Notes: a model not told the origin generated them from the sequence alone. A stretch of DNA of 64,000 nucleotides from Shigella phage Sf22 (MF158045); one strand, 5' to 3'; positions 1 through 17,796 are shown, numbered from the stretch's first letter. A program made the numbers and translations.

Positions 1-503
1 TAGACCCTTTGGTTATTTCATTTAGAATGGATTCAGAAGCTTGTAACTATCGTGCAATGCAAGACTGGGTTAACTCCGTTCAAGACCCAGTAACTGGATT
101 ACGTGCTTTGCCACAAGATGTCGAGGCAGATATTCAGGTTAATCTTCATTCTCGTAATGGATTACCTCATACTGCGGTGATGTTCACTGGATGCATTCCA
201 ATATCAGTGAGCGCTCCTGATTTATCATATGATGGAGATAACCAAATAACTACATTTGATGTTACTTTTGCGTATAGAGTCATGCAGGCTGGAGCGGTTG
301 ATAGACAAGCTGCGCTTGAATGGCTTGAATCTGCTGCTATAAATGGTATTCAAAGCGTTCTCGGAAATAGTGGAGGTGTTACTGGACTATCTAATTCGCT
401 TTCACGACTTAGTAGATTAGGAGGAACTGCAGGAAGCATTTCAAACATTAATACTATGACAGGGATTGTCAATTCGCAGAGTAAAATATTAGGAGCAATA
501 TAA
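1..503 (+). CDS. 54: Baseplate/tail-tube junction protein, C-terminal part; gene starts upstream of the window
   Basis: Open frame runs from the window edge to a stop at 503; sits immediately before alt as gene 54 does in T4; Gly/Ser-rich C-terminus. Assignment by synteny only. Confidence 0.5.
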   Translation, partial: DPLVISFRMDSEACNYRAMQDWVNSVQDPVTGLRALPQDVEADIQVNLHSRNGLPHTAVMFTGCIPISVSAPDLSYDGDNQITTFDVTFAYRVMQAGAVDRQAALEWLESAAINGIQSVLGNSGGVTGLSNSLSRLSRLGGTAGSISNINTMTGIVNSQSKILGAI

Positions 504-531
504 CAATGGGGACCTTTCGGTCCCCACATTT

Positions 532-822
532 TTATTTACGGAATGAAATGAAAGCAGCAACTGAAGCAACTAAACTGTCTTCAATATAAACTTCAATTTT
601 TACCGGAGCTTCTGACTCAAATTTACCTGTTACTACACCTTGGAAAATACTTTCAGTTTGTTCTGGCTTTGAAAAATTTTCAGAAGGAAAAATTCCGAAC
701 TTTTTATCTGTTCCAAAAATTTTAATAAATTCATCGTAAACTGCTTCATTAAAAGCATTATCAGCAGGAATAACGCCTTCAACTACAAGTTCTTGACCTA
801 AAAAGCGTAAAGAAGATTTCAT
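532..822 (-). CDS. Hypothetical protein (96 aa) downstream of alt
   Basis: ORF track; start is preceded by GAGGA and the conserved promoter-leader cassette. Confidence 0.55.
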   Translation of the reverse strand: MKSSLRFLGQELVVEGVIPADNAFNEAVYDEFIKIFGTDKKFGIFPSENFSKPEQTESIFQGVVTGKFESEAPVKIEVYIEDSLVASVAAFISFRK

Positions 823-853
823 TTTGTGTTCCTCATGTTATGTCAGTAAGACT

Positions 854-883
854 ACTATAACACAACACGAGGGACTTGTAAAC
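854..883 (-). promoter_or_regulatory. Early sigma70-type promoter (-35 GTTTAC, -10 TATAGT), copy 1 of an exactly duplicated 54-bp promoter-leader cassette
   Basis: Minus-strand reading GTTTAC-N18-TATAGT then leader ending in GAGGA; identical sequence recurs at 16152-16205. Confidence 0.5.
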
Positions 884-2940
884 TACATTTTGAACTTTTT
901 AGACATTCCGTTGATGTTAACCAAAGAAGCTAAGATTTGAGAAACTTCATTTTCCTCTTCTTTTGATTCTTCTACAAGGAATTGATTAAATCCAGCCATT
1001 GGACGAACTTCACCAGTTTCCATTAAATGGTCGCCATCATATACTGATTCTTCTAATTGTTCAGAAGGAGGAACGATTGTACCTTCGATTAGATACTTGT
1101 TATAAGCAGTTTCTTTCATAAAGTACGTGCTCACTTTATTAATCTTCAGTAAAATTCCACGTGGTAGAATAACTTCAGCTTCTGATGGAAATCCTGATAA
1201 ATGACCCGGAACGATAACTTTGATTCGCTCAGCTCCTTTAATTACCATACCCACGCTAGTTTCAGCATCTTCATTAGCATATGTAGAATGACTACCCATA
1301 TGCATCAAATCTTCTGCATCAACAGAACCTTCTCCTTCGCCAGAAAATACTGCACCGGAATCATCTAGAGCCATATAGTTTTTACCATGCTCACCGAAGA
1401 TATTTGGTTTAAGTGATGTTGATACGAAGTTCTTGAAATAGAACATTTTATTTTCAATATTATGGCGTAAAGTTTTAAAGGTAACTTCTTGTCCACGATA
1501 AAGCGTAGTTCCTGGAGGAAGAACTGAACCTTTAGCGAATGCAGAATCCATTGTCTCGATGTGTTTAATAGCTCGTTCCATGTATTCTTCACGGGTAGAA
1601 TCTGGTTTACCCAAAAGGAACGAGTTCATTTCAACATATGAATCTGCACAATAATCTTCAATTACATCAGATTCAGCTTGAGTTAATCCTTTTGGAGTTA
1701 CTTCGGTGCTTGCGTATTCATATGCCTGGGCAGCAGATTCATTAATCAATTTATAAATGCCATTCATGACAAATTGAATAATAGCTGTCTTTTCATCTGG
1801 CGTAGCTTTAGAACCTTTAACTAAATCATTAATAATTTTCTTAATAACATCAAAGCTATTAGAAATATTAATGTCAGCAAGATCGCTTAAAATTTTATCA
1901 GTTTTATAATCAAAGAATTCTTTATTCTTTAAATATTCTTGAGAACCTTGATATGTTATATCGCTCTGCAACTTGATAGATGGATCACGTAAACGTGCAT
2001 GTGCTAATGCAATATGATTTCGGAAGTTTTCTAGTTCATAATCGTTAGATTTAAAACGAGAAGCACTTCTCATACCACCGATAGCTCCTTTGCTAAAGTT
2101 TGAACCAATCTGGATAACCCCGGAGTTCATTGGTCCTTCTGCTTTATATACCGGAACTTTAGATTCAAACTCTTGATATTTCTTGGCAGCGAAGCTATCA
2201 CCCTGAAGTGAAGCATCGACAGTAGAATATTGAGCTTGTGCTGCTAATCGACGACTAATTTTAGTTTTCTGAATAACAGCTTGATCAGTGCGCTTATCAT
2301 TTTCTAAAGCAATAGAAGCAGCAACAGCGACAGCTTTAGGAACAGCATTACCTGTTTTAACGTCTACATAAACATCACCAACCTTTGATTCAACTTTTGT
2401 GAATAACTCAGTTGAAATAGGAGGTACACCTGGAATGTCTTCTAAATTGGCATTTTTACGGTAAACCATAATATATGCGTACTTTTTATCATAGTCCCAG
2501 ATTTCCTTTAAAAGAACATACCGACCTGCTCCTTTAGTACGTACTAAACGGTCAGCAATAACTTGCATTTGACGAGCTGCGCCATTTGTTTTACTCTTTA
2601 GTACGCGGAATAGGCATGCGTCGATTTTATACTGCTTCATTGTTTGAAGAGCAGTATCAAAAACAGCATTAATGACGCCAATTGGATTTCCACCCAAGTT
2701 TCTAAGCTTAACCAGCGATAATTTCTCGTTGACACCTATCATTACGATATGCATCATTTTATCGCCTGGCTTAACGTTTTTATTCGTATCACCACCAGAG
2801 GTGTATGTACAAAATCTAAATCCAGGAAGCACGCTTTCTTCGCCGGCTTGAATAGCAAAAATTTGTGGTATTTTATGCTTAGGATTTAAGTTAACAACCG
2901 GCGCCGAAGCGCCGTCAAATAATTCTGTAATAAGTTCCAT
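883..2940 (-). CDS. alt: Alt-family mono-ADP-ribosyltransferase, paralog A (685 aa)
   Basis: N-terminal MELITELFD... matches recalled T4 Alt; C-terminal domain carries R / STS / E-x-E motifs (LYRGQ, FVSTS, SEAEVILPRG). Confidence 0.85.
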   Translation of the reverse strand: MELITELFDGASAPVVNLNPKHKIPQIFAIQAGEESVLPGFRFCTYTSGGDTNKNVKPGDKMMHIVMIGVNEKLSLVKLRNLGGNPIGVINAVFDTALQTMKQYKIDACLFRVLKSKTNGAARQMQVIADRLVRTKGAGRYVLLKEIWDYDKKYAYIMVYRKNANLEDIPGVPPISTELFTKVESKVGDVYVDVKTGNAVPKAVAVAASIALENDKRTDQAVIQKTKISRRLAAQAQYSTVDASLQGDSFAAKKYQEFESKVPVYKAEGPMNSGVIQIGSNFSKGAIGGMRSASRFKSNDYELENFRNHIALAHARLRDPSIKLQSDITYQGSQEYLKNKEFFDYKTDKILSDLADINISNSFDVIKKIINDLVKGSKATPDEKTAIIQFVMNGIYKLINESAAQAYEYASTEVTPKGLTQAESDVIEDYCADSYVEMNSFLLGKPDSTREEYMERAIKHIETMDSAFAKGSVLPPGTTLYRGQEVTFKTLRHNIENKMFYFKNFVSTSLKPNIFGEHGKNYMALDDSGAVFSGEGEGSVDAEDLMHMGSHSTYANEDAETSVGMVIKGAERIKVIVPGHLSGFPSEAEVILPRGILLKINKVSTYFMKETAYNKYLIEGTIVPPSEQLEESVYDGDHLMETGEVRPMAGFNQFLVEESKEEENEVSQILASLVNINGMSKKFKM

Positions 2941-2943
2941 GAT

Positions 2944-5040
2944 TTATCCTTGAACGAACTTGTAAGGCATGTTTGTAATATCTATGCAAGACGCAATAAT
3001 TCCAAGAGATGATTCTACTTTCTGTTTAACATTTGATGAAACAAATGATGCAAAGTCAACTCTGTCTTCTATTTCAATATCACCTGTCATTGCAACTACT
3101 TCGCCAGTTTCCATTAAACGGTCACCGTCATAAATTACCGATTCGGTGAGTTCTTCGGTGGTCATAACTTCAGCTTGAATGAGTTTTGTATTATTAGACG
3201 TGGTTCCGTCATTATTAGAAGCATCAGTTATTTTATTAACTTTGACCATCAATCCGCGCGGTAGAATAACTTCGGCTTCTGTTGCTATTCCGAGACTTCC
3301 TGGATATACAACATTAACTTTATGAGCTCCATCAATTGCCCATCCTATTTGAACTTTAACGTATTCAGGATTTTCTTTATACGCTCTTATTTCGTTTGGA
3401 TTAATAGTTATTCCTTCTTCATTTTTATCAACTGTTAATTCATTGCGAGCTTCTGGTTCTAAAAGACCAATACCAGCATGTGTAATTCCAAAACGTCCAA
3501 AAATGATAGGAGTTAAAGAAGTAGATACAAAATTTCTGAAATAGAACACTTTATTTTTAACTAGTGCTTCGTATATAGGAGCAGTCATACTTTGAGCACG
3601 ATAAACTGTAATGCCTTCCGGTATACGGTCACCATTTTCAAAAGCTGAATCTAAATTATTTATAGCAGATTCAATTTCTTTTTCACTCATTATATCATAT
3701 CGTTCTGGATTGTAACGACCTAAAAGAAGATTATTGATGTCTGTATATCCTGAACCACAATACTCTCTAATGCCGCGCTTTTGTGATGGAGTATATTTAG
3801 AACCATCACGGGCAATAGTAATATCAATCATTGGACCTGCACCAATTCCGGAAAAGCTATAAATCATTCGTTTGAGGAATTTAGTTTTTGCTGCATTCCA
3901 GGCATTTTTAGTTATTTCTCCCCAGACTTCATCTGGTTGCCCTTTACGAGTTTTATTATGTTTATCAAGCCAATTATCTTTATATTCTTCAAAGAATTTA
4001 TTAACAGCTGCTGCGTATTTCTCTAAACATTTTATTGAAGTAGTTGGTTCATTTTTGATTGCGTTAAAAATTACATCTTTAATTTTTTCGGAAACTTCAT
4101 CAACCTCACTTTTTGAAAAGAATTTATAGTCATAGTGAAGTTCATTCGCAGTTCCTTCGGCAATAATTTTTGCTGCCTTAGTTTTAGAAGCTAATGAATT
4201 AATTCCAAGCTTCATTTCTTCTGCTTCGGGAATTAAAGGAGCGGTAGCAGGTTTATTGAAATTAGCTGCGGTAGATTCATACTTCTGGAATAATTCACTT
4301 TCAAATCTAGAAGACTCTAACGATTGACTTTGTGCAATTGCTCTACGGGAAATTTTAACTTTAACGATTACAGCTTGGTCAGAACGTTTATCGTTTTCTT
4401 GTGCAATAGATGCTGCAATTGCCTCATTTTTAGTTACTTGAGCCCCAGTATCTTTATTGATATAAACATCACCGACCTTCGATTCAACTTTAGTAAAGAG
4501 CTCGGTACTAATTTCCGGAACTCCTGGAATGTCTTCTAGTGATACATTTTTGCGATGTATAAGAATATATGCATACTTTTTATCATAATCCCAGAGTTCC
4601 TTAAGAAGGACGTATCTGCCACCTGAACGACTACGGATAAGTCTATCAGCAATAACTTGAATTTGTCGAGCTTGACCAGCGGTTTTAGACTTAAGAATAC
4701 GGAGCATACAGGCATCAATTTTATACTGACGCATTGTTTGCATTGCAACAGTAAAAACTGAATTGATATAATTAATTGGGCTTGGACCAAGACCTTTTAA
4801 TTTAGCAATTGAACCTTTAGCAGTTAATGTAAAAGGAACAATATGCATCATTTTATCGCCCATCTTTAAATCGCGATTAGTATCACCTCCAGATGTATAG
4901 GTACATAAACGAAAGCCTGGCTGTTCAATTGCATCATCAACGTGAACTGAAAAAATTTGCGGTATTTTCTTCTTTGGATTTAAGTTTGTAATCGGAAGAG
5001 TAGTATCTTCGTCAAATAATTCTGTAATAAGTTCCATCAT
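2944..5040 (-). CDS. alt: Alt-family mono-ADP-ribosyltransferase, paralog B (698 aa)
   Basis: First ~230 aa closely similar to paralog A; central region diverged; catalytic motifs retained (VYRAQ, FVSTS, TEAEVILPRG). Which copy is the T4 alt orthologue cannot be decided without alignment. Confidence 0.85.
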   Translation of the reverse strand: MMELITELFDEDTTLPITNLNPKKKIPQIFSVHVDDAIEQPGFRLCTYTSGGDTNRDLKMGDKMMHIVPFTLTAKGSIAKLKGLGPSPINYINSVFTVAMQTMRQYKIDACMLRILKSKTAGQARQIQVIADRLIRSRSGGRYVLLKELWDYDKKYAYILIHRKNVSLEDIPGVPEISTELFTKVESKVGDVYINKDTGAQVTKNEAIAASIAQENDKRSDQAVIVKVKISRRAIAQSQSLESSRFESELFQKYESTAANFNKPATAPLIPEAEEMKLGINSLASKTKAAKIIAEGTANELHYDYKFFSKSEVDEVSEKIKDVIFNAIKNEPTTSIKCLEKYAAAVNKFFEEYKDNWLDKHNKTRKGQPDEVWGEITKNAWNAAKTKFLKRMIYSFSGIGAGPMIDITIARDGSKYTPSQKRGIREYCGSGYTDINNLLLGRYNPERYDIMSEKEIESAINNLDSAFENGDRIPEGITVYRAQSMTAPIYEALVKNKVFYFRNFVSTSLTPIIFGRFGITHAGIGLLEPEARNELTVDKNEEGITINPNEIRAYKENPEYVKVQIGWAIDGAHKVNVVYPGSLGIATEAEVILPRGLMVKVNKITDASNNDGTTSNNTKLIQAEVMTTEELTESVIYDGDRLMETGEVVAMTGDIEIEDRVDFASFVSSNVKQKVESSLGIIASCIDITNMPYKFVQG

Positions 5041-5061
5041 AGCCTCTCTAGTGTTTATTCT

Positions 5062-5069
5062 ATTTATAA
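5062..5069 (-). promoter_or_regulatory. Candidate late promoter (TATAAATA) upstream of the alt pair
   Basis: Exact TATAAATA on minus strand ~25 nt upstream of the paralog B start; Alt is a virion-packaged protein. Confidence 0.45.
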
Positions 5070-5073
5070 AATT

Positions 5074-5091
5074 AAAGGCCCGAAGGCCTTT
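5074..5091 (-). terminator. Stem-loop AAAGGCC-CGAA-GGCCTTT with adjacent T-rich tract
   Basis: Perfect 7-bp stem, 4-nt loop; same hairpin sequence recurs at 52626-52643. Confidence 0.45.
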
Positions 5092-5278
5092 AGTAATCTA
5101 GTGGTAAGAGAGTACGATATATTTCAAACTTTGGTCCTTTTTCATAGGCATCAAATGTTTCTGTAAATTTATTATAAGCGTATGCATCTACAAATTCGAG
5201 AATGACTTGTGATACAGAAGTAGAAACATCTCCACCTTCTTTTTGAGCAATGACAATTGTTTCTAAGTAAGCTTTCAT
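5090..5278 (-). CDS. Hypothetical protein (62 aa)
   Basis: ORF track; start overlaps the ligase stop. Confidence 0.5.
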   Translation of the reverse strand: MKAYLETIVIAQKEGGDVSTSVSQVILEFVDAYAYNKFTETFDAYEKGPKFEIYRTLLPLDY

Positions 5279-6738
5279 AGACCAGTTACCTCATGAAAAT
5301 CACCAAATACATCCTCGAATGTATTAGCTTTAGTTTTATCTTCACGTAAACGAATCGCAATCGGAAGAAATAATTTAACGTAATCAGTGCGGCCATCAGA
5401 TTTTAACCAACCGTTGCATTCGCACTCTAGAATTTTTCCAATATAATAATTTTGGTTTTCCATAATGCGAGTACGGTCAAGCTCATGTGATTTTACGCCG
5501 GCTTTATCTTTTAAGCCTGAACCAGCATTTACTTTAATTTTTCCACATTCTGATTCAAGAATAAATCCACCCGCTTTAGTAGGGTCTTTACGGTGAGGAT
5601 AAATTCCTACAATTTTTAAATCAACATCAATTACTTCTTTAAATTTATAAAGATTTTTTGAACGAGCATTTTCCCATAATCCATCGATATTTTTGAGAAT
5701 AATACCTTCAAGACCTTGGTCAATATACTTTTTGTAAATTACCTTAGCTTCATCTAGGTTATTTACTACCTGGTTTTCAATTAAAATTACTTTATCATAG
5801 CCTGATGTCATTTGTTCTAGTTTAGAAAAACGTACATCATACTTTAAACGAAATGCAGGAAGACCATATATTTCTACTAATGGAACATAGTCCCAGACCT
5901 GAAACTTCATGCATTGTGCTTCTTTTTCGGAAATGGTTCCCTTTAAAGATTTATTAGCGATTCCATTAGAAGCAGTACGTGATTCAGCTACTTCGGCGAA
6001 TTCTTTAGCTTTACTAATTTCAGGATAAGCATCAAAAAGAAAATCTAGGCCTTCTGGTTCCTTTTTAACTTGCTCATGGTATACCAATTCGCCATCAATT
6101 AACACACCTTCTGGATGAATCTGGCGGGCTTCAGCGGTCATTTTGATTAACTCTTCCTTGAGAAGATCTAATCCTAGATATTCATTACCAGCTCGTGATA
6201 AAAGACGAACATCATCTAATTCATCACCTCTGACTTCAGCAAAGCACCGAGCTCCATCAGCTTTTAATTGGGCAAAGGCTGGAAATTTGATATTCTTATT
6301 AATGCCTTTTTCATCATAAGAACTTGCCAGCATTTGAGGTTGTTCAGGAATTAAACCTGGCCAAACTTTGTTTGCAATAGATACTGATGCACCACATTCA
6401 AGGTCTCGCATCATCACCCGACGCAAAACTTCAACATCATCTTTTTTACCGTCAGCAATATATCCAGTTAATTCCTCAATTGCCGCATTTCCGGTCAATT
6501 TCCGAGTAGCTAACGTTAATTCAATGAAGTCAAGCATATCGGTAAGAGTCAACATTCCAAAACTCTGGGTAGCAATACCAGGTTTAGGCCATTTCTTGAT
6601 ATAATACTGTAACCCACGAGAATAAGTCAGACGATATACTCGTTTAAGCAATTCATTATCTTTATTCTTTTCAAGAATTGCTTGCTTCTGCTTAGTTGAA
6701 CCAATAGATGCTATTTCGTTCAGAATTTTAAGAATCAT
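5275..6738 (-). CDS. 30: ATP-dependent DNA ligase
   Basis: 487 aa, MILKILNEIASIGSTKQKQAILEKNKDNELLKRVYRLTY... matches recalled T4 DNA ligase throughout. Confidence 0.97.
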   Translation of the reverse strand: MILKILNEIASIGSTKQKQAILEKNKDNELLKRVYRLTYSRGLQYYIKKWPKPGIATQSFGMLTLTDMLDFIELTLATRKLTGNAAIEELTGYIADGKKDDVEVLRRVMMRDLECGASVSIANKVWPGLIPEQPQMLASSYDEKGINKNIKFPAFAQLKADGARCFAEVRGDELDDVRLLSRAGNEYLGLDLLKEELIKMTAEARQIHPEGVLIDGELVYHEQVKKEPEGLDFLFDAYPEISKAKEFAEVAESRTASNGIANKSLKGTISEKEAQCMKFQVWDYVPLVEIYGLPAFRLKYDVRFSKLEQMTSGYDKVILIENQVVNNLDEAKVIYKKYIDQGLEGIILKNIDGLWENARSKNLYKFKEVIDVDLKIVGIYPHRKDPTKAGGFILESECGKIKVNAGSGLKDKAGVKSHELDRTRIMENQNYYIGKILECECNGWLKSDGRTDYVKLFLPIAIRLREDKTKANTFEDVFGDFHEVTGL

Positions 6739-7004
6739 TGTTCATCCTTTAGAGTTTGGTTTACAGCTCTATTATAAATCAATTCATCATTAAGCTCAGT
6801 CAAAGACCTGTGGTACGTGGTTCTAACTTTATTTCCTTGCATCCAGTGCTTGACGTAAATGAAACCTTGCTCTACACATTTTTTAAAAATTCGTTCGTCT
6901 TTTTGAGCTCGAAATTCTGGATTGCATCTAAAAAATTGATTTACGTGACCGTAATCACGTGTAGTATTACCTTCATTTTCATAAATAGTGTGAACGACAA
7001 ACAT
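6735..7004 (-). CDS. Hypothetical protein (89 aa), 30.1 position
   Basis: ORF track; synteny. Confidence 0.55.
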   Translation of the reverse strand: MFVVHTIYENEGNTTRDYGHVNQFFRCNPEFRAQKDERIFKKCVEQGFIYVKHWMQGNKVRTTYHRSLTELNDELIYNRAVNQTLKDEQ

Positions 7005-7840
7005 TAGAATGCTCCTTGGAAAATATTATCACCACCAGTAGGTCTATTATACAAATACTCTATGCCACCAGGTTTAATATAGTTCCATGTCTGAAAAGGA
7101 TGCGTCTGATATGGATGATATAGATTATAAGGATTAAATCCAGGAGTTCTCCAGGTAGTGTTCCAAGGAAAAGAATCGTTTTTAATCATCTTCTCAATTA
7201 CATCTTTTATAACTTTTTCACTATCAAAACTTTCTTTATTTTCCTTCGATGGAAAAAGTTTATTCTCTACATCATTCCATGTATAAACTCGCTGCGCAGT
7301 TTTTGGAATATTGTCACGCTCCCCTCGAGCCATCCAATAAACAGGAACATTTAATAATTCACTTGCATGATCGCAGTGGTGAGCGAGATCGTCAATATAA
7401 CAAATTACGTTATATTTCTCTTTTGCCTTTTTGAACAACTCTTCTTTTGAAGAATCATGACTACACATCAGTACTTCTGAGAAGGCACCAGGAAAAAGAG
7501 CATTCAAATTAAATTGACGATTCAACAGAGCGTCAATAGAATCACCCAGTGCTGTAACAGCAACAAAATTATAATCTTCTTTTAATTTGTTAATTACACA
7601 CAGAGCATCTTTATATGGAGACAAGTAACGAATAAAATCCGAACGATTGTATTTTTCAATTAGCTTAACGCCAAGATCTTCATCACAGTTAAAGAGTTTA
7701 CCTGGAGAAATAAATTTTTCGTCCTGAATCATTTTTAAAATATGTTCTAACGGAAGATTATATTTCTGAGCAAAATAAGGAAGACCTGATTGCCAGCTTA
7801 AACATACACCATCAATATCAGTCAAAATAGTAGGCTTCAT
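7004..7840 (-). CDS. HAD-superfamily hydrolase-like protein (278 aa), 30.2 position
   Basis: N-terminal LTDIDGVCL resembles HAD motif I (DxDG[VT]). Confidence 0.6.
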   Translation of the reverse strand: MKPTILTDIDGVCLSWQSGLPYFAQKYNLPLEHILKMIQDEKFISPGKLFNCDEDLGVKLIEKYNRSDFIRYLSPYKDALCVINKLKEDYNFVAVTALGDSIDALLNRQFNLNALFPGAFSEVLMCSHDSSKEELFKKAKEKYNVICYIDDLAHHCDHASELLNVPVYWMARGERDNIPKTAQRVYTWNDVENKLFPSKENKESFDSEKVIKDVIEKMIKNDSFPWNTTWRTPGFNPYNLYHPYQTHPFQTWNYIKPGGIEYLYNRPTGGDNIFQGAF

Positions 7841-8301
7841 AGAGAGTCTCTTAGTAGGTTTAACACATCAATAAATTCAGCTTCGGTTAGTATTGTATCA
7901 TCTTTTGTTAGACCACTAGCCATGCTGTGCTTCAAAACTTTTCCTTTTGAGGCTTGTAAGGCATCACGAAAGCCCTTGTTTTGGATCGCTGCTTCAAAAT
8001 ATGCATTTGTATACAACTCTTTCCACGCTGGAGAGTATCTTGAAAATGGAACTCCAAGCCAGAAGAGGGTCCCACGGTCCTGAGCTCTAGCATAAGACCT
8101 TCCAGCTTGTTGGGCGGCAAGCCCGGATAACCCAAATACACGACGTTGTTGTTCAACATTTTTCACCTTGCATCCTTGGAGGAATCCTTCAAGACCTCCA
8201 AATTGAATACCATCCATGACGAAAGGCCATTGGGCGAAATTACTTAATGCACATGATGGCCACCTAAAATTGCTTCTAATCTCTAACTCAGACATTTTCA
8301 A
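7837..8301 (-). CDS. NADAR/YbiA-like (DUF1768) protein (154 aa), 30.3 position
   Basis: LSNFAQWPFVMDGIQFGGLEGFLQGCK resembles the NADAR signature. Confidence 0.55.
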   Translation of the reverse strand: MKMSELEIRSNFRWPSCALSNFAQWPFVMDGIQFGGLEGFLQGCKVKNVEQQRRVFGLSGLAAQQAGRSYARAQDRGTLFWLGVPFSRYSPAWKELYTNAYFEAAIQNKGFRDALQASKGKVLKHSMASGLTKDDTILTEAEFIDVLNLLRDSL

Positions 8302-8494
8302 TGCTTATAATTTCAACATCAGCCCAATGACCATAGCAAGGAAGACGAAATTCAACTGGCCAGTTAGGGTCCTTTTCTAATATAATAGACTCAACTTGTG
8401 GTTCTTCATGTTCATCAGTATATGGATTTTTATCTGTTACTTTATATGTGACCTTAATGTACTGAATTCCAAAAATCTTATTAATTATATTCAT
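8288..8494 (-). CDS. Hypothetical protein (68 aa)
   Basis: ORF track. Confidence 0.45.
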   Translation of the reverse strand: MNIINKIFGIQYIKVTYKVTDKNPYTDEHEEPQVESIILEKDPNWPVEFRLPCYGHWADVEIISIENV

Positions 8495-8688
8495 ACTAAT
8501 TCCTTTAATCCGTAAATAGGAGATAATTCATCACCCATGCGAAGGTCTTCATTTCCATCTACCCAGGAAACAATATAAGCCTCTTTTATTTGAATACCAC
8601 TCCATTTAAATGGAGGTAGAACCTTAGAAATTAATCCAGGTATACCAACTCCCTTTAATTCAACAGTTTGACCTAAAAAGAATTTCAT
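8491..8688 (-). CDS. Hypothetical protein (65 aa)
   Basis: ORF track; start overlaps upstream stop. Confidence 0.45.
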   Translation of the reverse strand: MKFFLGQTVELKGVGIPGLISKVLPPFKWSGIQIKEAYIVSWVDGNEDLRMGDELSPIYGLKELV

Positions 8689-8975
8689 TAGAACCTCATC
8701 TGAAAACCGTGCGATTTAACATTACCGCCGCCAATATCAGAAATGTTAATTTCACGCGCAATTGAAGGGTCAATGTCAATTTCACGATTGAGTTTAGTGA
8801 TAGCTAAAGTATCGCGCCCATTTACAGTACGAAACTCTAAAGGACAAACCACATCAACATAGTTTTTAATCGATTCGCTAGTAGGTTGCAAATGTGCAGG
8901 AAGGTCTTTAGGCGCCTTTGAGAAAACTACTTCGCAGAAGTTTTTACGGGTATCAAAATAAGTGGTCATAAACAT
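8688..8975 (-). CDS. Hypothetical protein (95 aa)
   Basis: ORF track; GAGG RBS. Confidence 0.5.
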   Translation of the reverse strand: MFMTTYFDTRKNFCEVVFSKAPKDLPAHLQPTSESIKNYVDVVCPLEFRTVNGRDTLAITKLNREIDIDPSIAREINISDIGGGNVKSHGFQMRF

Positions 8976-9015
8976 AATAATTCCTCAGTAAGGGGCTGAA
9001 GCCCCTCATTTTATT

Positions 9016-9381
9016 TTAAATATCAAATTCGTTAAGAACTACATCAAAGATTGCTTCCAAGTGCTCAGGTTTAGCTTTGTTACTCAGAATATGACGAATC
9101 CAAGTTTTAACCAAAAGCTTGCGATTAACGCCATTCCAGCAAGGATGAGCCCCTAAATCGCGTTGACGGAAATCATCATCCAGAGCGATTTTAAAGTTGG
9201 AACCTTCCATTGTGATTGAAACCGTGATACCGTTTTCAAATCGCATATAAACGTAATTAGGAGTCATATACTGTTCAATTTCGCATACTGAACCATTTTG
9301 ATGTTTCCAGAGGCAAATAGTATCAATAGAACCTGCAATACCATTAGAAACATATTTACGTTCAAAGTTAATGTAGTTCAT
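9016..9381 (-). CDS. Hypothetical protein (121 aa; start moved to MNYINF)
   Basis: Conserved leader TTGGAGAATAAAATG; the track start is a TTG inside the RBS. Confidence 0.5.
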   Translation of the reverse strand: MNYINFERKYVSNGIAGSIDTICLWKHQNGSVCEIEQYMTPNYVYMRFENGITVSITMEGSNFKIALDDDFRQRDLGAHPCWNGVNRKLLVKTWIRHILSNKAKPEHLEAIFDVVLNEFDI

Positions 9382-9406
9382 TTTATTCTCCAAGATGTTT
9401 AATTGC

Positions 9407-9446
9407 GGTACAGGTATATAATATCATATCCTGTACCAAAGTAAAC
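9407..9446 (-). promoter_or_regulatory. Early promoter (GTTTAC -35) with 8-bp inverted repeat GGTACAGG/CCTGTACC bracketing the -10
   Basis: GTTTAC-N17-TATTAT on minus strand; arms at about 9407-9414 and 9430-9437. Confidence 0.45.
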
Positions 9447-9448
9447 AA

Positions 9449-9781
9449 TTATTTTACTACTTTCCAGTGCTTCATGTCAAGTTTACCAACTTTTTTCATC
9501 TTCTCAATTAAGCGTTCGGCACGTTGGCGAGCTGTAACATAATACCATTCACCTAATTCATTTTGTTCAATTTTTCCAACGATTACTGTATTCAATTCAT
9601 AAATCCAACCAGTAAAGAAATTATGAACTTGAATTGTAAAGGTGAAATCTGTTCCCATACCTTCTGTTGTTTCTACTTCAATAATATCACCTTCAACTGC
9701 CATTAAGAACCACATAGTTTCATCATATTTACCATTGAAGCATTTAGTTTTAACTGCAGCGTTCAGATTAATCGTTTTCAT
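9449..9781 (-). CDS. Hypothetical protein (110 aa)
   Basis: ORF track; AGGAGAATAAAATG RBS. Confidence 0.5.
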   Translation of the reverse strand: MKTINLNAAVKTKCFNGKYDETMWFLMAVEGDIIEVETTEGMGTDFTFTIQVHNFFTGWIYELNTVIVGKIEQNELGEWYYVTARQRAERLIEKMKKVGKLDMKHWKVVK

Positions 9782-9865
9782 TTTATTCTCCTTTGTTTGT
9801 GTAAGATAATACTATCACAAAGGAGCTATACTGTAAACAACTTTATGCAATCTTTGGAAAATAAA

Positions 9866-9890
9866 AAAGGACTCCCGAAGGAGTCCTCAA
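9866..9890 (-). terminator. Rho-independent terminator (GGACTCC-CGAA-GGAGTCC + T-run)
   Basis: Perfect 7-bp stem followed by TTTTTTATTTT on minus strand; identical hairpin recurs after soc. Confidence 0.6.
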
Positions 9891-9891
9891 C

Positions 9892-10068
9892 TTATGCTTT
9901 CTGCTTACCAAAACGAGAAGCATCATCTCGAAGAACCGCACGTGCTCGGCGCATGATCTTCTCAACAGTTTGATTGATACGAGAGTTCGACCCACGCTTG
10001 TAACCAGCGCGTTTAGAATCACCAACTTTCTTTTCAACTGCTTTCTTTGCTTTAACTTGTTTTGCCAT
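9892..10068 (-). CDS. Small basic protein (58 aa; start at MAKQVKAKK)
   Basis: Lys/Arg-rich ORF with AAAGAG RBS; the track's N-terminal extension lacks an RBS. Confidence 0.5.
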   Translation of the reverse strand: MAKQVKAKKAVEKKVGDSKRAGYKRGSNSRINQTVEKIMRRARAVLRDDASRFGKQKA

Positions 10069-10356
10069 TAAAAATTCTCTTTTAAACGAAAATGCAGGAC
10101 TTATTGGCATTGCCTGCGAAAGCCCTCAAAGGGGTACTTAGGTTTTGAATATTTACCGACAGGATAACCATAAACCCGTCATCATACCACCAAGACTTAC
10201 ACAGATAACACTTTTCTGACGCATGATAGTAACATTCAAGAGGTACACCGTAAAACTGCCGGGGTCTTAAAACTATAATGATTCGCAAATCATTAATCAG
10301 ACAGTTCGACGGCTCCTCGATTTTAGCTCACACTAAGGCAGTGAATCTCCAATAAA

Positions 10357-10605
10357 TTACTTCAGTGTTACCACAAAGTGACGAACTGCTTTTCGTGCAG
10401 CAGAAGCCAGAGGCTTAGCATATTTAAGTTCATCTTTTTCCTGAAGCTCAGCAGCTAATGCAGTTTGAGCAGGATTCAGATGTTTGAAATAACGCAGGAT
10501 TTCAAGAGCTTCGGCTTCAACATCAATAGATGCGCCATAGTTTTCGTGACCATTATTCCATGCGTTTCGTTGCAGTTCAAGAGCGTGTTGTAATTGTTTA
10601 ATCAT
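10357..10605 (-). CDS. rIII: rIII lysis-inhibition accessory protein
   Basis: 82 aa, MIKQLQHALELQRNAWNNGHENYG... matches recalled T4 rIII; synteny. Confidence 0.9.
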   Translation of the reverse strand: MIKQLQHALELQRNAWNNGHENYGASIDVEAEALEILRYFKHLNPAQTALAAELQEKDELKYAKPLASAARKAVRHFVVTLK

Positions 10606-10744
10606 TTAAAAATTCTCGTTAGAGATTAAAACTCGGTAGTCACGTTCTTCTGAATTTCATCTTCTTTCGACAGATCTCTCAGTTGTAGACTACCACATAG
10701 AATTGTTCGGTTAACTTATTATTCCGACACCCAATTCATATTAT

Positions 10745-10752
10745 TATTTATA
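10745..10752 (-). promoter_or_regulatory. Candidate late promoter (TATAAATA) in the 31-rIII intergenic region
   Basis: Exact TATAAATA on minus strand ~140 nt upstream of the rIII start. Confidence 0.3.
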
Positions 10753-11088
10753 TCACTTATAAAGACACGGAATAGCTTTATAATGACAGGTAACGAATTT
10801 TTGTTTAATTTCTTTTGGCTGCTTAAGACCCAGAGCTACAAAAGGATGCGGAACATTTCGAATTTGACCAACTGGAAGAGAAGTCAAATCACCAACTTCG
10901 CAGAAACCTTCAGGAACATCAGGACCGACAGAGTGAACTACACACAGTTCAGGAACTTCACCTTGAACACGTTTACCGATGATAAGTCCTGATTCTGTAA
11001 CTTCTTCATCACCGGCTTGTGCAGGTTCAGAAACTAAAATAACATATTCACCGACAGCACGAATTGGTAGCTGTTGTACTTCAGACAT
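10753..11088 (-). CDS. 31: Co-chaperonin (GroES analogue)
   Basis: 111 aa, [22 protein letters not shown]... matches recalled T4 gp31. Confidence 0.93.
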
Positions 11089-11144
11089 CGTTTTTCCTTT
11101 TTGTTAACAGATGAATTAATAATAACAAATAATTCTTAAAGCAT

Positions 11145-11453
11145 TTATTTACCAATAAATTGGAGTAAATGCTCAACTTTCATACCATTAACAGAAATCA
11201 ATTTGTCAATAGAAAAACCTCGCCATGCACCAAGCTCAACATCAAATACTGGAATCATGTCAGTAGATTCTTTCCGAGTAGATTCAGTCAATTTACCAGT
11301 TTGCATGGTTGGCATAAAGTCTGCATCACGAGTACCTTTCATAGTACGAATAGTACCATCAGACTTTTCAAAAACTACGTTTGAAACACCCATGGACAAT
11401 TTAGTTTTCAAAATTTCACGAATTGCTACTTTCTGCTCAGTTGTCAGTTTCAT
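11145..11453 (-). CDS. Hypothetical protein (102 aa)
   Basis: ORF track; synteny (31.1 position). Confidence 0.5.
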   Translation of the reverse strand: MKLTTEQKVAIREILKTKLSMGVSNVVFEKSDGTIRTMKGTRDADFMPTMQTGKLTESTRKESTDMIPVFDVELGAWRGFSIDKLISVNGMKVEHLLQFIGK

Positions 11454-11690
11454 TTATTTACCTATTACAGTTTTAATATGAGTTGTTCCACGTTCTTTAA
11501 GGGTGGAAAGTAATTTTTGGCATTTTTCTAAATCAGATTTCCAACTATATGGTCTATCAATACTAGTCCAATCAGTTTTATAATACTGTTTCCATTTAGA
11601 GAAAAAATATTTCTTATACTCTACAGCAAATGAGATGTTCTCATTAGAATAAGAACTAATTGCTGTGAGCTTTACCAAACGAAATTTCAT
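11454..11690 (-). CDS. Hypothetical protein (78 aa)
   Basis: ORF track; synteny (31.2 position). Confidence 0.5.
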   Translation of the reverse strand: MKFRLVKLTAISSYSNENISFAVEYKKYFFSKWKQYYKTDWTSIDRPYSWKSDLEKCQKLLSTLKERGTTHIKTVIGK

Positions 11691-12271
11691 TATTCACCAC
11701 AGAATTCGTTGATATTTTCCCAGTTTAACTTATTCAAGTTTTTCTTAGGAACATTAAACACTTCAATACCTGCATTTCGCAGAATATCATCCCAACCAGG
11801 TTTATTTTTATCGTATGTTTCACAATAAACTAGCTTTTTAATACCAGATTGAGCTATCGCTTTTGCGCAATCCGGACAAGGAGAAAGTGTTACATACATA
11901 GTAGCACCTTCAATAGAAGAACCATTTCGTGCAGCAAACAAAATTGCATTTAGTTCAGCATGAATTTCATTTTTAGATGACCATTCCGAGTGAGCACTAC
12001 GATGTTCTTTCGCCAAGACAAAACGATCAGTTGAACCAAACGATACACATTCAGGCTTATGACCTTGAATGATAGTATGTTTAGGTTTATTCAACAACCA
12101 ACCTTGCTCAGCAGCATAATCACAGCAGTTCACACCACCAGCAGGTGAACCATTATATCCGGTAGAAATAATACGTCCATTCTTTTCAATTACTGCTCCT
12201 ACTTTCCAGGAGCAACATTTTGATTCTTGTGATACTAAATATGCAATTTGAAGTACTGTACTCGCTTTCAT
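11690..12271 (-). CDS. cd: dCMP deaminase
   Basis: 193 aa; cytidine/deoxycytidylate deaminase zinc motifs (HAELNA, PCPDC); matches recalled T4 Cd. Confidence 0.93.
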   Translation of the reverse strand: MKASTVLQIAYLVSQESKCCSWKVGAVIEKNGRIISTGYNGSPAGGVNCCDYAAEQGWLLNKPKHTIIQGHKPECVSFGSTDRFVLAKEHRSAHSEWSSKNEIHAELNAILFAARNGSSIEGATMYVTLSPCPDCAKAIAQSGIKKLVYCETYDKNKPGWDDILRNAGIEVFNVPKKNLNKLNWENINEFCGE

Positions 12272-12606
12272 TTCATAATCACCAGATAAGCAGATTTAGC
12301 AGTTTCAACACGATAAATTTCGTGACGAAGTTTAGTTATACTTTTAATAACAGAACTAATTATATTCTGCCCATCTTTAAAGCGGTTTTTCTTATCAATA
12401 AAAATTGCACCAGCCATCTTTTTGTGAAGCTCAACTGGATACTTCGTCACAATAATAGCATCATACACAGAAGGATGAATACTATTCACTAGAGTGTCAT
12501 TCATTAAAGTTATTCTAATGAACTGTGCTGTGTCAGAGTCAAGCGCTCTATGATCGCCAGTATCATTTTCAAGACAATTATCAATTATATCAGTTAAATT
12601 CATCAT
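12268..12606 (-). CDS. Hypothetical protein (112 aa)
   Basis: ORF track. Confidence 0.5.
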   Translation of the reverse strand: MMNLTDIIDNCLENDTGDHRALDSDTAQFIRITLMNDTLVNSIHPSVYDAIIVTKYPVELHKKMAGAIFIDKKNRFKDGQNIISSVIKSITKLRHEIYRVETAKSAYLVIMK

Positions 12607-12839
12607 AGTACGCCATACACCCTTTGTGCTTCAACTAATCCATCAAAATCCAATTTGAGATGTGTTATTTGGTCACCATCACCTGGATTCACAATTACTA
12701 ATACTGAACGAGGAGTTTCGGTAATAACACGAACCGATGTTTCAGGAAATCGTTCAGAAACCTTATTTACCAATTCCTGTGCAAATAGCTTAACTTTTTC
12801 TTGGAATTCTTTAACAGTAATTGGTTTTTCACTTAGCAT
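12603..12839 (-). CDS. Hypothetical protein (78 aa)
   Basis: ORF track. Confidence 0.5.
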   Translation of the reverse strand: MLSEKPITVKEFQEKVKLFAQELVNKVSERFPETSVRVITETPRSVLVIVNPGDGDQITHLKLDFDGLVEAQRVYGVL

Positions 12840-12901
12840 TTTGTTTTCCTCATTTGTTTTGGTAGAGCTATAATATCACAACTCTACCAAAAAGTAAACT
12901 A

Positions 12902-13177
12902 TTAAATTGCCTTGAATTCTGATGTCTGTGATTCAAAGCGAATATCGCCTTTGATGACTAGCTCAGCATCAAGACCAAATACGACAATGATATGCGCGGA
13001 ACCCGGATACAGCGTAATTGCAATAGAATCCACCTGGTCTGGAAGCAAAGTGTTCAATACATGAGTCACTTGAGCATGAATTCGAAGCTCGGCTGCATTA
13101 TCAAGCTTTTCAAACATATTATTAGCAATAATTTGGCTAAACACTACTTCTACGATTTTAGAATAAGTTGGAAACAT
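12902..13177 (-). CDS. Hypothetical protein (91 aa)
   Basis: ORF track. Confidence 0.5.
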   Translation of the reverse strand: MFPTYSKIVEVVFSQIIANNMFEKLDNAAELRIHAQVTHVLNTLLPDQVDSIAITLYPGSAHIIVVFGLDAELVIKGDIRFESQTSEFKAI

Positions 13178-13179
13178 AT

Positions 13180-13372
13180 TTACCTCACATAATTTTCTTC
13201 AAGCCAATTAATAACATCCAACGCATTATCAAAAGTTGAACCATCTACTCTGTCTTCTGTTTCATAATCAAGAACATCTAAGCCTACTCTTCCATCAACA
13301 ATAGGCCATAAACAAAATAGATATTTCTTTTCTTTTTCAATTTTATCACAAAGACGATAAATCTTTTCTATG

Positions 13373-13380
<8 letters not shown>
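13180..13380 (-). CDS. Hypothetical protein (66 aa)
   Basis: ORF track. Confidence 0.45.
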
Positions 13381-14773
<1,393 letters not shown>

Positions 14774-14777
<4 letters not shown>

Positions 14778-15010
14778 TTATTTTTCTCAACCAATGATTG
14801 AATATAATCATGCAGGTCTTTAGATGCTTTACCCCACTTATTTTGGTATTCATTTTTAAGATTAGCACGTGATTGAGCTAATAAAACATCATTAGTTGGA
14901 GGTAAAGATTCTAATCGTTGAATCTGGCGTCCATAAATCATTGCAGCCATCTCGGATTCATAAATCAATCCTTTGAGATGTTCAAATTGATGCCATGAAA
15001 TCATTTGCAT
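14774..15010 (-). CDS. Hypothetical protein (78 aa)
   Basis: ORF track. Confidence 0.5.
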
Positions 15011-15300
15011 TTATCCTCTTTTAACTCTTGGCGATAATAACATATCATAGTTTTCTGATCATGTACATATCGTTTTACATCATTAAGCCAAATACGAAAT
15101 TCCTGGGAATCTTCGAATGGCATACCGACCCAAGCTTTACCATCAATAACTTTAACTTGCCAAGATAGTTTGGCTTCGTCATATGACTTTATTTGCACAG
15201 GCCAATTAGGATGAACTGTTTCTTTCTTTACTTCTAGAGGCTTTGTAGAACAACCAACTAGAAGACCAATAGATAATATTACTGCTGATAGTTTAATCAT
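15001..15300 (-). CDS. pseT.2: Outer-membrane spanin (lipoprotein, 99 aa)
   Basis: Signal peptide with lipobox LLVGCS; directly downstream of and overlapping the inner-spanin candidate. Confidence 0.6.
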   Translation of the reverse strand: MIKLSAVILSIGLLVGCSTKPLEVKKETVHPNWPVQIKSYDEAKLSWQVKVIDGKAWVGMPFEDSQEFRIWLNDVKRYVHDQKTMICYYRQELKEDKCK

Positions 15301-15650
15301 TTAGAAAGGTCCTGGATGTCTTCTGCGAACTTGTTGAAGGAGTTGTTGATTTGTTTTTCAACCAATCCTGGCTTATGAGCCACCACATCCGCCTTCTTTG
15401 CGTCTTTGCGCAGTTTTTCATTTTCACGCTCAATAGCAGCAATCGCCTCACGATTTTTATTATTCATCGCATCAATATAATTATACTGAATTCGCAAATT
15501 ATTTAATGCTAAGGCGTTTTCATTGGCCGTTTTTGTAATTTCTACAACAGACGTTTCTAATCTTTCAATTTTATTTTTTAAAATTAAAGAAGTTCCGCCT
15601 AATGCAATTACAATTAATAGCAAACCTGCTGTCGTATTACTTAATTGCAT
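15297..15650 (-). CDS. pseT.3: Inner-membrane spanin (117 aa)
   Basis: N-terminal transmembrane helix followed by charged coiled-coil-like region; T4 spanins occupy this position. Confidence 0.6.
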   Translation of the reverse strand: MQLSNTTAGLLLIVIALGGTSLILKNKIERLETSVVEITKTANENALALNNLRIQYNYIDAMNNKNREAIAAIERENEKLRKDAKKADVVAHKPGLVEKQINNSFNKFAEDIQDLSK

Positions 15651-16147: not shown

Positions 16148-16175
16148 AAAGTCCTCATGTTATGTCAGTAAGACT

Positions 16176-16205: not shown

Positions 16206-16208
16206 AGC

Positions 16209-17796
<1,588 letters not shown>

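Follow-up and report, generated by a model that had tools for sequence, protein, structure and literature searches.

Background

The Alt protein of bacteriophage T4 (gpAlt, 682 aa) is an NAD+:arginine mono-ADP-ribosyltransferase that is packaged in the head and injected. It is present as a head protein in about 40 copies and is cleaved at ITE-6 and LTE-619 (PMC5694885, PMC9026906), both cleavages having been mapped by mass spectrometry (PMC5694885). The enzyme modifies Arg265 of the RNA polymerase alpha subunit and is promiscuous (PMC2988021), and the alt gene is non-essential in T4 (PMC9026906). The T4 ModA and ModB proteins belong to the same R-S-E clade as Alt (PMC5512222). Unlike the Alt proteins, these are early proteins of about 200 aa that are not packaged and have neither the N domain, the helical middle nor the processing motifs.

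Duplications of alt were listed for T4, RB49 and 44RR in a 2006 paper (PMC1524935). Tandem arrays are found in several genera, with three copies in Dhakavirus QL01 and two in JS98, two in Biquartavirus 44RR, and one copy plus an ART-only ORF in Krischvirus RB49; in these genera as well the arrays adjoin gene 54. More distantly, the bacterial ART toxins C3, iota-Ia, CdtA, VIP2, Vis and Certhrax (PF03496; arginine- or asparagine-specific) resemble Alt in catalytic fold and carry the R / S-T-S / E-x-E motifs, although they are 14–25% identical to it and lack both the Alt N domain and the C-terminal propeptide. These toxins are delivered via toxin translocons, whereas Alt is delivered via the phage head.

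Organization of the alt locus

The window analysed here is a stretch of 64,000 nt from Shigella phage Sf22 (MF158045), and all features described are on the minus strand. The two neighbouring ORFs reported in the initial annotation, of 698 aa (2944..5040) and 685 aa (883..2940), are present and lie 3 nt apart. The first is alt, a T2/T6-type allele and the orthologue of T4 alt, which ends in TAA (2944..2946). Its length of 698 aa is counted from the first ATG; the real start is probably the second ATG, at 5037, giving 697 aa, because the RB32 protein is annotated as 697 aa and T4 Alt begins MELITE. The second ORF is a full-length second Alt paralogue ending in TAG (883..885), for which the RB32 gene name, alt.-2, is used here. 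The pair is flanked by gene 54 and alt.-3 on one side and by alt.1 and DNA ligase (gene 30) on the other, as is alt in T4.

Identity of the locus is 97–99% with that of T2, T6 and RB32 and with hundreds of further Tequatrovirus records, in which both genes bear the annotation "Alt-like RNA polymerase ADP-ribosyltransferase"; for T2, T6 and RB32 the arrangement is annotated in RefSeq. About 400 phage records carry alt.-2 at full length and at least 90% amino acid identity, and the protein from the window differs in nothing notable from that of RB32, T2, T6 and some 400 Tequatrovirus records (98–99.7% protein identity, equal position and length). The tandem of alt and alt.-2, at first presented as unusual, is a common and already annotated state in Tequatrovirus, and represents the two-gene alt operon that is both ordinary and ancestral among the T-even phages. 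While the two-gene arrangement was known, the selection on the genes, their gp21 sites, the promoter-like site that they share, the age of the duplication and the nature of the T4 deletion are added here.

The window also contains intact modA (200 aa; 59978..60580) and modB (207 aa; 60577..61200) genes, 97.5% and 98% identical to those of T4, which together with alt and alt.-2 make up the four ADP-ribosyltransferases previously counted in this DNA. Neither modA nor modB was recovered by tblastn with either Alt copy at E <10.

Transcription and translation signals

A T4-late-promoter-like sequence, TATAAATA, is located at 5061..5068; it precedes the start codon of alt (5037) by 24 nt and comes directly after the alt.1 terminator. 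It is the sole late-promoter-like site upstream of the gene pair and is kept in T4 and fPS-65, with CATAAATA as the Dhakavirus version. Since the motif shows no enrichment in the window as a whole (9 found versus 9.7 expected), its assignment as a late promoter rests on position and conservation. The terminator is an intrinsic-terminator-like hairpin (5073..5092) that ends the ligase/alt.1 transcription unit, and a terminator is annotated at the same place in fPS-65.

No promoter or terminator was found at the junction of alt and alt.-2 (2941..2951). An AAGGA sequence (2947..2951) overlies the last alt codons and is followed by the alt stop codon, 3 nt and the alt.-2 ATG at 2940; AAGGA is the predicted ribosome-binding site for alt.-2. 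A spacing of 0–3 nt is also seen between the tandem copies of fPS-65 and between the head-to-tail copies of Dhakavirus QL01 and JS98. An early-type sigma-70 promoter-like site (TTTACA-17-TATAGT with TG; 854..882) is present after alt.-2 only, not before it. This site is directly past the alt.-2 stop, matches a predicted early promoter annotated in fPS-65, and would serve alt.-3 (532..822).

Domain structure and catalytic residues

Alt and Alt.-2 are clear paralogues (41% identical from end to end, BLASTP E = 8e-162) and have a four-part layout in common. A short propeptide with an alpha/beta N domain is followed by a middle region that is all-helical and then by an R-S-E mono-ART domain, and the C-terminal tail is demarcated in both proteins by an L-x-E protease motif, located in a linker of low model confidence. 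The N-terminal alpha/beta domain of Alt, including the propeptide MELITE, is formed by residues 1–239 (4321..5037; AF2 pLDDT about 77–93) and that of Alt.-2 by residues 1–238 (2227..2940). The central all-helical region spans approximately residues 240–419 in Alt (3781..4320), as helices in the AF2 model, and 239–419 in Alt.-2 (1684..2226), as delimited from the structure model and identity tables. This region of Alt is hypervariable in the family, with a column identity of about 0.10–0.13. The ART domain spans approximately residues 420–626 in both proteins (3160..3780 in alt, 1063..1683 in alt.-2). The ART beta-sandwich fold is present in both predicted structures and is modelled with confidence in Alt.-2, in which an acidic loop at 518–539 has low model confidence.

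Both proteins cover PHROG 802 (phrog_802) end to end, with E values of 5e-256 and 2e-272, and both exceed the Pfam gathering score of 23.4 bits for PF03496 (ADPrib_exo_Tox), at 71.9 bits for Alt.-2 and 128.3 bits for Alt. The assignment of the N domain is taken from the precomputed PF26846 and PF03496 domains of relatives 89–99% identical to Alt.-2, PF26846 being missing from the Pfam copy used. When 1.84 billion representatives were searched for the whole family, the Alt N domain turned up in only 69 instances, always N-terminal. An ART domain is present in 58 of the 60 proteins scanned that have it (57 family representatives, both window proteins and T4 Alt).

The R / STS / E-x-E set that had been noticed in both ORFs is borne out by alignment, by the translated codons and by conservation in the family, and neither copy lacks a catalytic residue. 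In Alt these are R480 (3598..3600), S505-T506-S507 (3517..3525) and E587-A-E589 (3271..3279), in the 697-aa numbering. The corresponding residues of Alt.-2 are R482 (1495..1497), S507-T508-S509 (1414..1422) and E587-A-E589 (1174..1182). The catalytic columns are kept in 58–59 of the 60 family representatives, and are invariant or nearly so in a 68-sequence alignment. An E-x-E motif, rather than Q-x-E, is the signature of arginine-specific ARTs.

Predicted gp21 processing sites

The gp21 prohead-protease motifs of T4 Alt are retained at both ends of Alt and of Alt.-2 as predicted cleavage sites. The N-terminal site of Alt, I-T-E6 (5020..5028), matches ITE-6 of T4 Alt, and its C-terminal site, L-T-E632 (3142..3150, within 2947..3150), aligns with LTE-619; cleavage there would release a 65-residue propeptide (2947..3141). 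Translation of the alt.-2 codons likewise gives I-T-E6 (2923..2931) and a predicted C-terminal site L-E-E631 (1048..1056, within 886..1056), which is followed by a candidate 54-residue propeptide (886..1047). E6 is kept in 66 of 68 family members, with L or I at position 4 in 62, and the C-terminal Glu in 67, with L or I at P3 in 61. In the structure models pLDDT is below 50 around the C-terminal sites (632–635 in Alt, 627–636 in Alt.-2). Both gp21 sites are in low-confidence segments of the models and are presumably exposed.

That the packaging of Alt.-2 is argued from sequence motifs, and its co-transcription with a late gene by deduction, leaves room for Alt.-2 to be a late intracellular enzyme, acting in the producing cell or in head assembly and not carried to the next host. 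This is improbable given that Alt.-2 has the N-terminal propeptide and both L/I-x-E sites of the packaged T4 Alt, together with an N domain that is rare, accompanied by ART in nearly all of the proteins scanned, and about 67% identical to that of its packaged paralogue.

Divergence of the two copies and age of the duplication

The N-terminal 230 or so residues of the two proteins had been described as near-identical. This is not the case, as the approximately 238 aa are about 67% identical (55–75% per 40-residue block), the only identical run is the first nine residues, MELITELFD, and synonymous divergence has reached saturation (dS about 1.5). The middle regions are diverged as initially reported, being unrelated (4–24% identity, no recognisable similarity), but divergence is not confined to them, extending to the ART domain (31–47%) and the C-terminal tail (about 40%). 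The overall identity of 41% in the pairwise alignment shows that these are not copies near-identical throughout. The loop between S-T-S and E-x-E is also unrelated. Four residues before the first catalytic Glu there is an aromatic residue, F or Y, in Alt.-2-type proteins, and I, P or H in Alt-type proteins. In the ARTT-loop model of the C3 and iota toxins the residue at this position touches the substrate.

In quartet bootstraps the N domains group by genome (1000 of 1000), while the middle, ART and tail each cluster with their own type irrespective of genus (998–1000 of 1000). QL01 copy 3 and JS98 copy 2 share the Alt.-2 type (middle 44–45%, ART 57–59%, tail 61–66% identity), and QL01 has a third Alt type that is missing in Tequatrovirus. 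The N domains from other genera are 42–47% identical to those of the window and cluster with the paralogues of their own genome. As the effector halves (middle, ART and tail) sort by type across genera and the N domains by genome, the duplication is older than the split of Tequatrovirus and Dhakavirus; it is ancient, rather than a recent copy that diverged later. The effector halves are old lineages that were separate before this split, and the N domains are lineage-specific.

Exchange is also evident within alt. The window protein is 70% identical to T4 Alt overall, with the processing sites and catalytic set in common, and about 99% identical in residues 1–246 and the C-terminal 60 or so. 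Codons 241–628, encoding the helical middle and ART, are a different cassette from that of T4 (43–79% nucleotide and 15–80% amino acid identity), with flanks that are mostly at least 97% identical. The ART part of this cassette is 84–93% identical in nucleotide sequence to QL01 copy 1. The helical middle has been exchanged as part of the cassette between T2-type and T4-type alleles, the helical domains of which are 15–28% identical.

Both alt and alt.-2 are under strong purifying selection, each having a dN/dS of about 0.02 in comparisons with RB32 and fPS-65 (dS 0.09–0.16). A redundant Alt.-2, packaged and active but modifying nothing that Alt does not modify already (Arg265 of RNA polymerase alpha and the bystander proteins) and so adding dose or robustness, would agree with the architecture, catalytic set and processing motifs common to the two proteins, with the known promiscuity of T4 Alt (PMC2988021), and with the ability of T4 and KAW1E185 to manage on one gene. 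Pure dosage duplicates, however, would be expected to be homogenised or lost, not maintained as two types. The effector halves have been kept distinct since before the genus split, each copy is constrained to the degree seen here, and the middles, active-site loops and much of the ART sequence differ. Redundancy is therefore considered unlikely.

Proposed function of Alt.-2

The reading that we favour, though with some reserve, is an ancestral two-gene operon of which both products are injected, Alt acting on RNA polymerase alpha and Alt.-2 on different or partly overlapping targets. Two injected effectors with different targets, as the initial annotation had it, are plausible from the sequences. 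Injection of both is favoured indirectly by the two gp21 motifs kept in Alt.-2, by its position 3 nt behind alt with a single late-promoter-like site ahead of the pair, and by the purifying selection on it. Both genes would be read late from the single TATAAATA promoter as a bicistronic message. Alt and Alt.-2 would then enter the prohead core, gp21 cleavage after E6 and E631/E632 would reduce them to about 69–70 kDa, and the trimmed proteins would ride in the head and be injected with the DNA. Once inside, both would draw on host NAD+ for the mono-ADP-ribosylation of arginines. As in T4, Alt would modify Arg265 of RNA polymerase alpha together with further proteins of the host, whereas the targets of Alt.-2 would be different or would overlap with these only in part. 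A different set is proposed because neither the helical domain nor the active-site loops of Alt.-2 are related to their counterparts in Alt, and the aromatic residue ahead of its first catalytic Glu points the same way. A change of helical domain does not by itself imply a change of targets, however, as the T4-type and T2-type alleles of alt differ there and are presumed to do the same job.

A more specific version is tentative. Here Alt.-2 would be a second virion-borne, injected arginine ART with host targets of its own; in place of RNA polymerase alpha these might be, for example, proteins of translation, of the stress response or of anti-phage defence. The alt locus would then be a modular arsenal of injected effectors, in which a lineage-specific N-terminal module for head incorporation is joined to old effector cassettes. 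These cassettes would come in two or three types, be interchangeable, pass from genus to genus and recombine among themselves. The literature searched contained nothing on Alt.-2 being made, packaged, cleaved, injected or active, and a search of papers found no virion proteome reporting it. As T4, IME537 and KAW1E185 are viable although they lack alt.-2 as a separate gene, and T4 alt is itself non-essential, the function is dispensable at least on laboratory hosts.

Loss of alt.-2 in phage T4

In T4 the alt.-2 gene has been destroyed by an internal deletion and a frameshift, whereas that of the window is complete. The T4 ORFs alt.-1 and alt.-2, of 61 and 67 codons, are homologous to the window alt.-2 over its initial ~355 nt and its final ~20 nt (94% and 99% nucleotide identity). 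A RefSeq note already traces them to an ancient duplication of the beginning of alt. They are the remnant of alt.-2 after a 1,699 bp deletion and one further 1 nt frameshift. The segment absent from T4 (894..2601) is between direct repeats of 9 nt, CTAAAGAGT (2593..2601) and CTAAAAAGT (894..902), that match at 8 of 9 positions.

This loss in T4-lineage phages, and a Pfam score for Alt.-2 below that of Alt, could be taken to mean that alt.-2 encodes a pseudo-enzyme or is a gene on its way to being lost elsewhere. Such a reading is disfavoured and is the least probable of those considered, since the frame is intact in the approximately 400 records, the low dN/dS applies to this copy as well, every catalytic residue is retained, and the ART fold is confidently predicted. 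If the proposed function is correct, this 1.7 kb deletion in the model phage T4 would explain why Alt.-2 has been overlooked, although the gene is retained in T2, T6 and most of the genus. The deletion junction in the sewage isolate IME537 is the same as that of T4.

The alt locus and its annotation

The window is a segment of a Tequatrovirus (T-even) genome. Bases 500–5300 match 542 phage records by megablast, with at least 80% of the stretch covered in 336 of these, and are 97–99% identical to T2, T6, RB32, RB27 and many field isolates. Just after gene 54, which is on the plus strand, lie alt.-3 (532..822), a 685 aa ORF (alt.-2, 883..2940), a 698 aa ORF (alt, 2944..5040), alt.1 (5090..5278) and the DNA ligase gene 30 (5275..6738), all on the minus strand. 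The records of RB32 and, in RefSeq, of T2 and T6 name the two long ORFs alt.-2 and alt, each described as an "Alt-like RNA polymerase ADP-ribosyltransferase". Since these records annotate the same pair, both genes are real and the coordinates assigned to them in the initial annotation are exact. The true start of the 698 aa ORF is most likely the second ATG at 5037, as in the RB32 annotation and in T4 Alt, giving a protein of 697 aa.

The two-gene alt arrangement is ordinary for the genus and, as far as annotation goes, already known, from the T4 RefSeq note and from Nolan et al. 2006 (PMC1524935), who list alt paralogues for T4, RB49 and 44RR. The window also has intact copies of the early ADP-ribosyltransferase (ART) genes modA (59978..60580) and modB (60577..61200), with 97.5% and 98% identity to their T4 counterparts, so the initial count of four ARTs in the window is right.

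Comparison of Alt and Alt.-2

The two proteins are 41% identical from end to end (E = 8e-162), with identity differing greatly by region. Residues 1–238 are about 67% identical (55–75% per 40-residue block), residues ~245–425 only 4–24%, the ART domain 31–47% and the C-terminal tail about 40%. The pairwise comparison by region therefore bears out a diverged tandem pair that is not near-identical throughout. The N-terminus, described initially as near-identical, was overstated, having synonymous sites that are saturated (dS about 1.5). Recent gene conversion is rejected on this saturation as the source of the N-domain likeness. The only trace of conversion between the paralogues is at their 5' ends, where the first 28 nt of both genes (ATGGAACTTATTACAGAATTATTTGACG; 2913..2940 and 5010..5037, minus strand) are identical, against a pS of about 0.65 elsewhere in the N domains. 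This suggests an RNA-level constraint near the start, or else conversion over a very short tract.

Both proteins pass the 23.4 bit cut-off of PF03496 (ADPrib_exo_Tox), alt.-2 with 71.9 bits and alt with 128.3 bits. As had been proposed, each copy keeps the catalytic residues, verified at the codon level: R482, S507–S509 (Ser-Thr-Ser) and E587/E589 (Glu-Ala-Glu) in alt.-2, and R480, S505–S507 (Ser-Thr-Ser) and E587/E589 (Glu-Ala-Glu) in alt. In a set of 60 family representatives, clustered at 50% identity, these columns are conserved in 58–59. No match was found in NCBIfam. Searching the PDB by sequence returned no entry for any Alt, and only weak matches to CdtA and iota toxin, from alt only.

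AlphaFold2 models of usable quality, resting on alignments of 66–68 sequences, were obtained for alt.-2 (pLDDT 79.2, pTM 0.70) and alt (pLDDT 82.9, pTM 0.72). They share a common plan. The first 4–9 residues are disordered. An alpha/beta N domain then extends to about residue 240 and is followed by an all-helical region (~245–470), the ART beta core (~478–625), a low-confidence linker around residue 630 and the C-terminal tail. The loop from Ser-Thr-Ser to E-x-E within the ART core is also of low confidence.

Constraint on alt.-2 and its loss from T4

When compared with RB32 and Yersinia phage fPS-65, alt and alt.-2 each have a dS of 0.09–0.16 and a dN of 0.002–0.003, a dN/dS of about 0.02 that holds in every domain. 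Within the genus alt.-2 is nearly monomorphic, being found by tblastn at 90% or more protein identity in 400 phage records, with the next matches below 60%. That alt.-2 is a decaying copy is essentially excluded by these selection data.

T2 and T6 keep alt.-2, as do about three quarters of the sequenced relatives. T4 is the exception, having lost this second, equally well conserved Alt-type enzyme. The T4 RefSeq note traces the small T4 ORFs alt.-1 and alt.-2 back to an old duplication affecting the first part of alt. These ORFs align at 94% to the opening ~355 nt of alt.-2 of the window, and the T4 remnant also aligns to the last ~20 nt and the downstream DNA at 99%. Absent from T4 are 1,699 bp between direct repeats matching at 8 of 9 positions, CTAAAGAGT (2593..2601) and CTAAAAAGT (894..902), and an additional 1 nt deletion in the remnant shifts the frame. 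The deletion junction is identical in the sewage isolate IME537 and is therefore a feature of the lineage, rather than a laboratory artefact. A strongly conserved second Alt is missing from the sole phage in which Alt was studied.

Motifs bearing on processing and packaging

T4 Alt is a prohead-core protein, present at about 40 copies per head, and is cut by the prohead protease gp21 after ITE-6 and LTE-619, the latter site being established by mass spectrometry in 2017, to give a product of 68.2 kDa (PMC5694885, PMC9026906). The calculated mass of T4 Alt residues 7–619 is 68.2 kDa, reproducing the published value. Corresponding motifs mark predicted gp21 sites at ITE-6 and LTE-632 in alt and at ITE-6 and LEE-631 in alt.-2, with predicted mature masses of 70.1 kDa and 69.2 kDa. 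The Glu residues of the two sites are kept in 66 and 67 of 68 family members, and Leu or Ile is present at P3 in 62 and 61 of the 68. Both predicted sites fall in low-confidence segments of the models. In alt and alt.-2, the phage has a pair of R-S-E ART genes, intact and under constraint, that share the architecture and the processing motifs of Alt.

Expression signals

A terminator-like hairpin (5073..5092, minus strand) is present 3' of alt.1. Directly after it, 24 nt before the alt start, is the late-promoter-like sequence TATAAATA (5061..5068, minus strand). With 9 copies against an expected 9.7, the octamer shows no enrichment in the window. It was rejected as a statistical argument for a late promoter, for which its position and conservation alone carry weight. 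The copy at 5061..5068 is conserved in T4 and fPS-65, and Dhakavirus has CATAAATA. At the junction of the two genes, the TAA stop of alt is separated by 3 bases from the start of alt.-2, which has AAGGA 6 nt upstream, and there is no promoter or terminator between them. An early-type promoter is found only after the alt.-2 stop, serving alt.-3. The simplest reading of this arrangement is that alt and alt.-2 would be expressed as one late bicistronic message.

A second TATAAATA is located within alt (3657..3664, minus strand), about 720 nt upstream of the alt.-2 start. Given the number of such sites expected, it probably occurs by chance, but a separate late transcript of alt.-2 could in principle start from it.

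Modular history of the alt array

Among T4-like phages, tandem arrays of alt are common. Phage fPS-65 has an alt of T4 type and an intact alt.-2, Dhakavirus JS98 and 44RR (Biquartavirus) have two copies each, Dhakavirus QL01 has three, and RB49 (Krischvirus) has one alt and an ART-only ORF. The QL01 genes (5001..11261 of that genome; 694, 681 and 707 aa) follow one another at a spacing of 3 nt. Between copies 2 and 3, the N domains share 89% protein identity despite a pS of 0.66. The RB49 ORF (5040..5864 of that genome; 274 aa) is directly 3' of alt and has no N domain, helical middle or C-terminal tail; lacking these parts, its product presumably does not share the packaging route of Alt.

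The N domains group by genome, those of the window pair being 68% identical to each other and reaching 42–47% identity with any of the Dhakavirus copies. The middle, the ART domain and the tail instead group across genera, according to type. In these regions, alt.-2 is 44–45%, 57–59% and 61–66% identical, respectively, to QL01 copy 3 and JS98 copy 2, and the corresponding parts of alt group with copy 1. When the columns of three quartets were resampled 1000 times, the N domain placed paralogues together in 1000/1000 bootstraps and the other regions placed types together in 998–1000/1000. Because of this grouping across genera, the effector halves (middle, ART and tail) are taken to have diverged before the split of Tequatrovirus and Dhakavirus, and independent duplication in each genus is unlikely for them. 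For the N domain alone, independent duplication, lineage-specific co-evolution and domain replacement are possible. Its grouping may reflect either old replacement or homogenisation within each lineage or co-evolution with a lineage-specific partner, which are not separable because dS is saturated.

An exhaustive profile-free search found the Alt N domain in only 69 proteins among 1.84 billion representatives. Sixty proteins were scanned, namely 57 of these matches, T4 Alt and the pair from the window; in 58 of them PF03496 was the sole further domain. The N domain as a general delivery module for varied effectors, in the style of polymorphic toxins, is therefore rejected.

The locus is mosaic over more recent time too. 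At the DNA level, alt of the window is mostly at least 97% identical to T4 alt over codons 1–240 and 97–99% identical over codons 659–698, with an internal cassette (codons 241–628; 3160..4320) at 43–79%. On this comparison, the T2 type and the T4 type of alt are two alleles of the cassette. The T2 type is present at 80% or more in about 320 records, and the T4 type in roughly 200. Within the T2-type cassette, the ART part (codons 420–629) is 84–93% identical in nucleotides to QL01 copy 1, with flanks at 40–76%, which implies exchange between genera. Escherichia phage vB_EcoM_KAW1E185 has a single chimeric gene (3004..5061 of that genome; 685 aa), joining codons 1 to ~599 of T2-type alt to codons ~578–685 of alt.-2, and has no separate second alt gene. 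It apparently arose by unequal crossover of tandem copies near the E-x-E motif. The locus has a modular evolutionary history. This and the conserved second Alt make up the remaining interest of the observation, which is modest.

Proposed role of Alt.-2

Alt is a textbook case of a host-reprogramming protein injected by a phage, and knowledge of it comes nearly all from T4. From a probable single late operon, Alt and Alt.-2 would both be built into the prohead core, trimmed at two ends and injected with the DNA, and both would ADP-ribosylate host arginines. The rival explanation of a late, non-injected role for Alt.-2 is to be set beside its gp21 motifs, which are predicted from sequence.

The substrate choice of Alt.-2 probably differs from that of Alt, because the two types are kept separate across genera, their helical domains are unrelated and their active-site loops differ. 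Four positions before the first catalytic Glu, the alt.-2 type has an aromatic residue (F in Tequatrovirus, Y in Dhakavirus) and the alt type has I, P or H. In the ARTT-loop model of the C3 and iota toxins, this position helps to choose the substrate. These differences bear also on a further rival, redundancy of Alt.-2 with Alt. Apart from the N-terminal identity, the initial observation is correct, and its interpretation as two injected effectors with distinct targets is a reasonable hypothesis.

Should Alt.-2 be injected and act on targets of its own, one part of the T-even takeover of the host in the first minute would still await description, and some of the differences in host range or in sensitivity to defence systems that set T2/T6 apart from T4 might trace to it. 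In practice, the value lies in a clean experiment, rather than in a new kind of system. A literature search for the Alt.-2 protein, virion proteomics of both copies and paralogue function, with most subscription journals outside its scope, found only a mention in the 2006 comparative genomics paper (PMC1524935).

Neighbouring genes

No tRNA or tmRNA genes were found by ARAGORN across the window (1..64000). Between the converging gene 54 and alt.-3 there is a bidirectional terminator-like hairpin (506..527; 9 pairs, 6 of them G-C), which is annotated likewise in fPS-65. The 96 aa product of alt.-3, a gene preceded by its own early-type promoter, matches DUF5498 (PF17602, 215 bits); T4 escapes the CmdTAC defence through mutations that lengthen the C-terminus of Alt.-3 (PMC11618068). 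The 62 aa product of alt.1 has a full-length Pfam match to PF24647, 'Phage blade protein' (101.9 bits).
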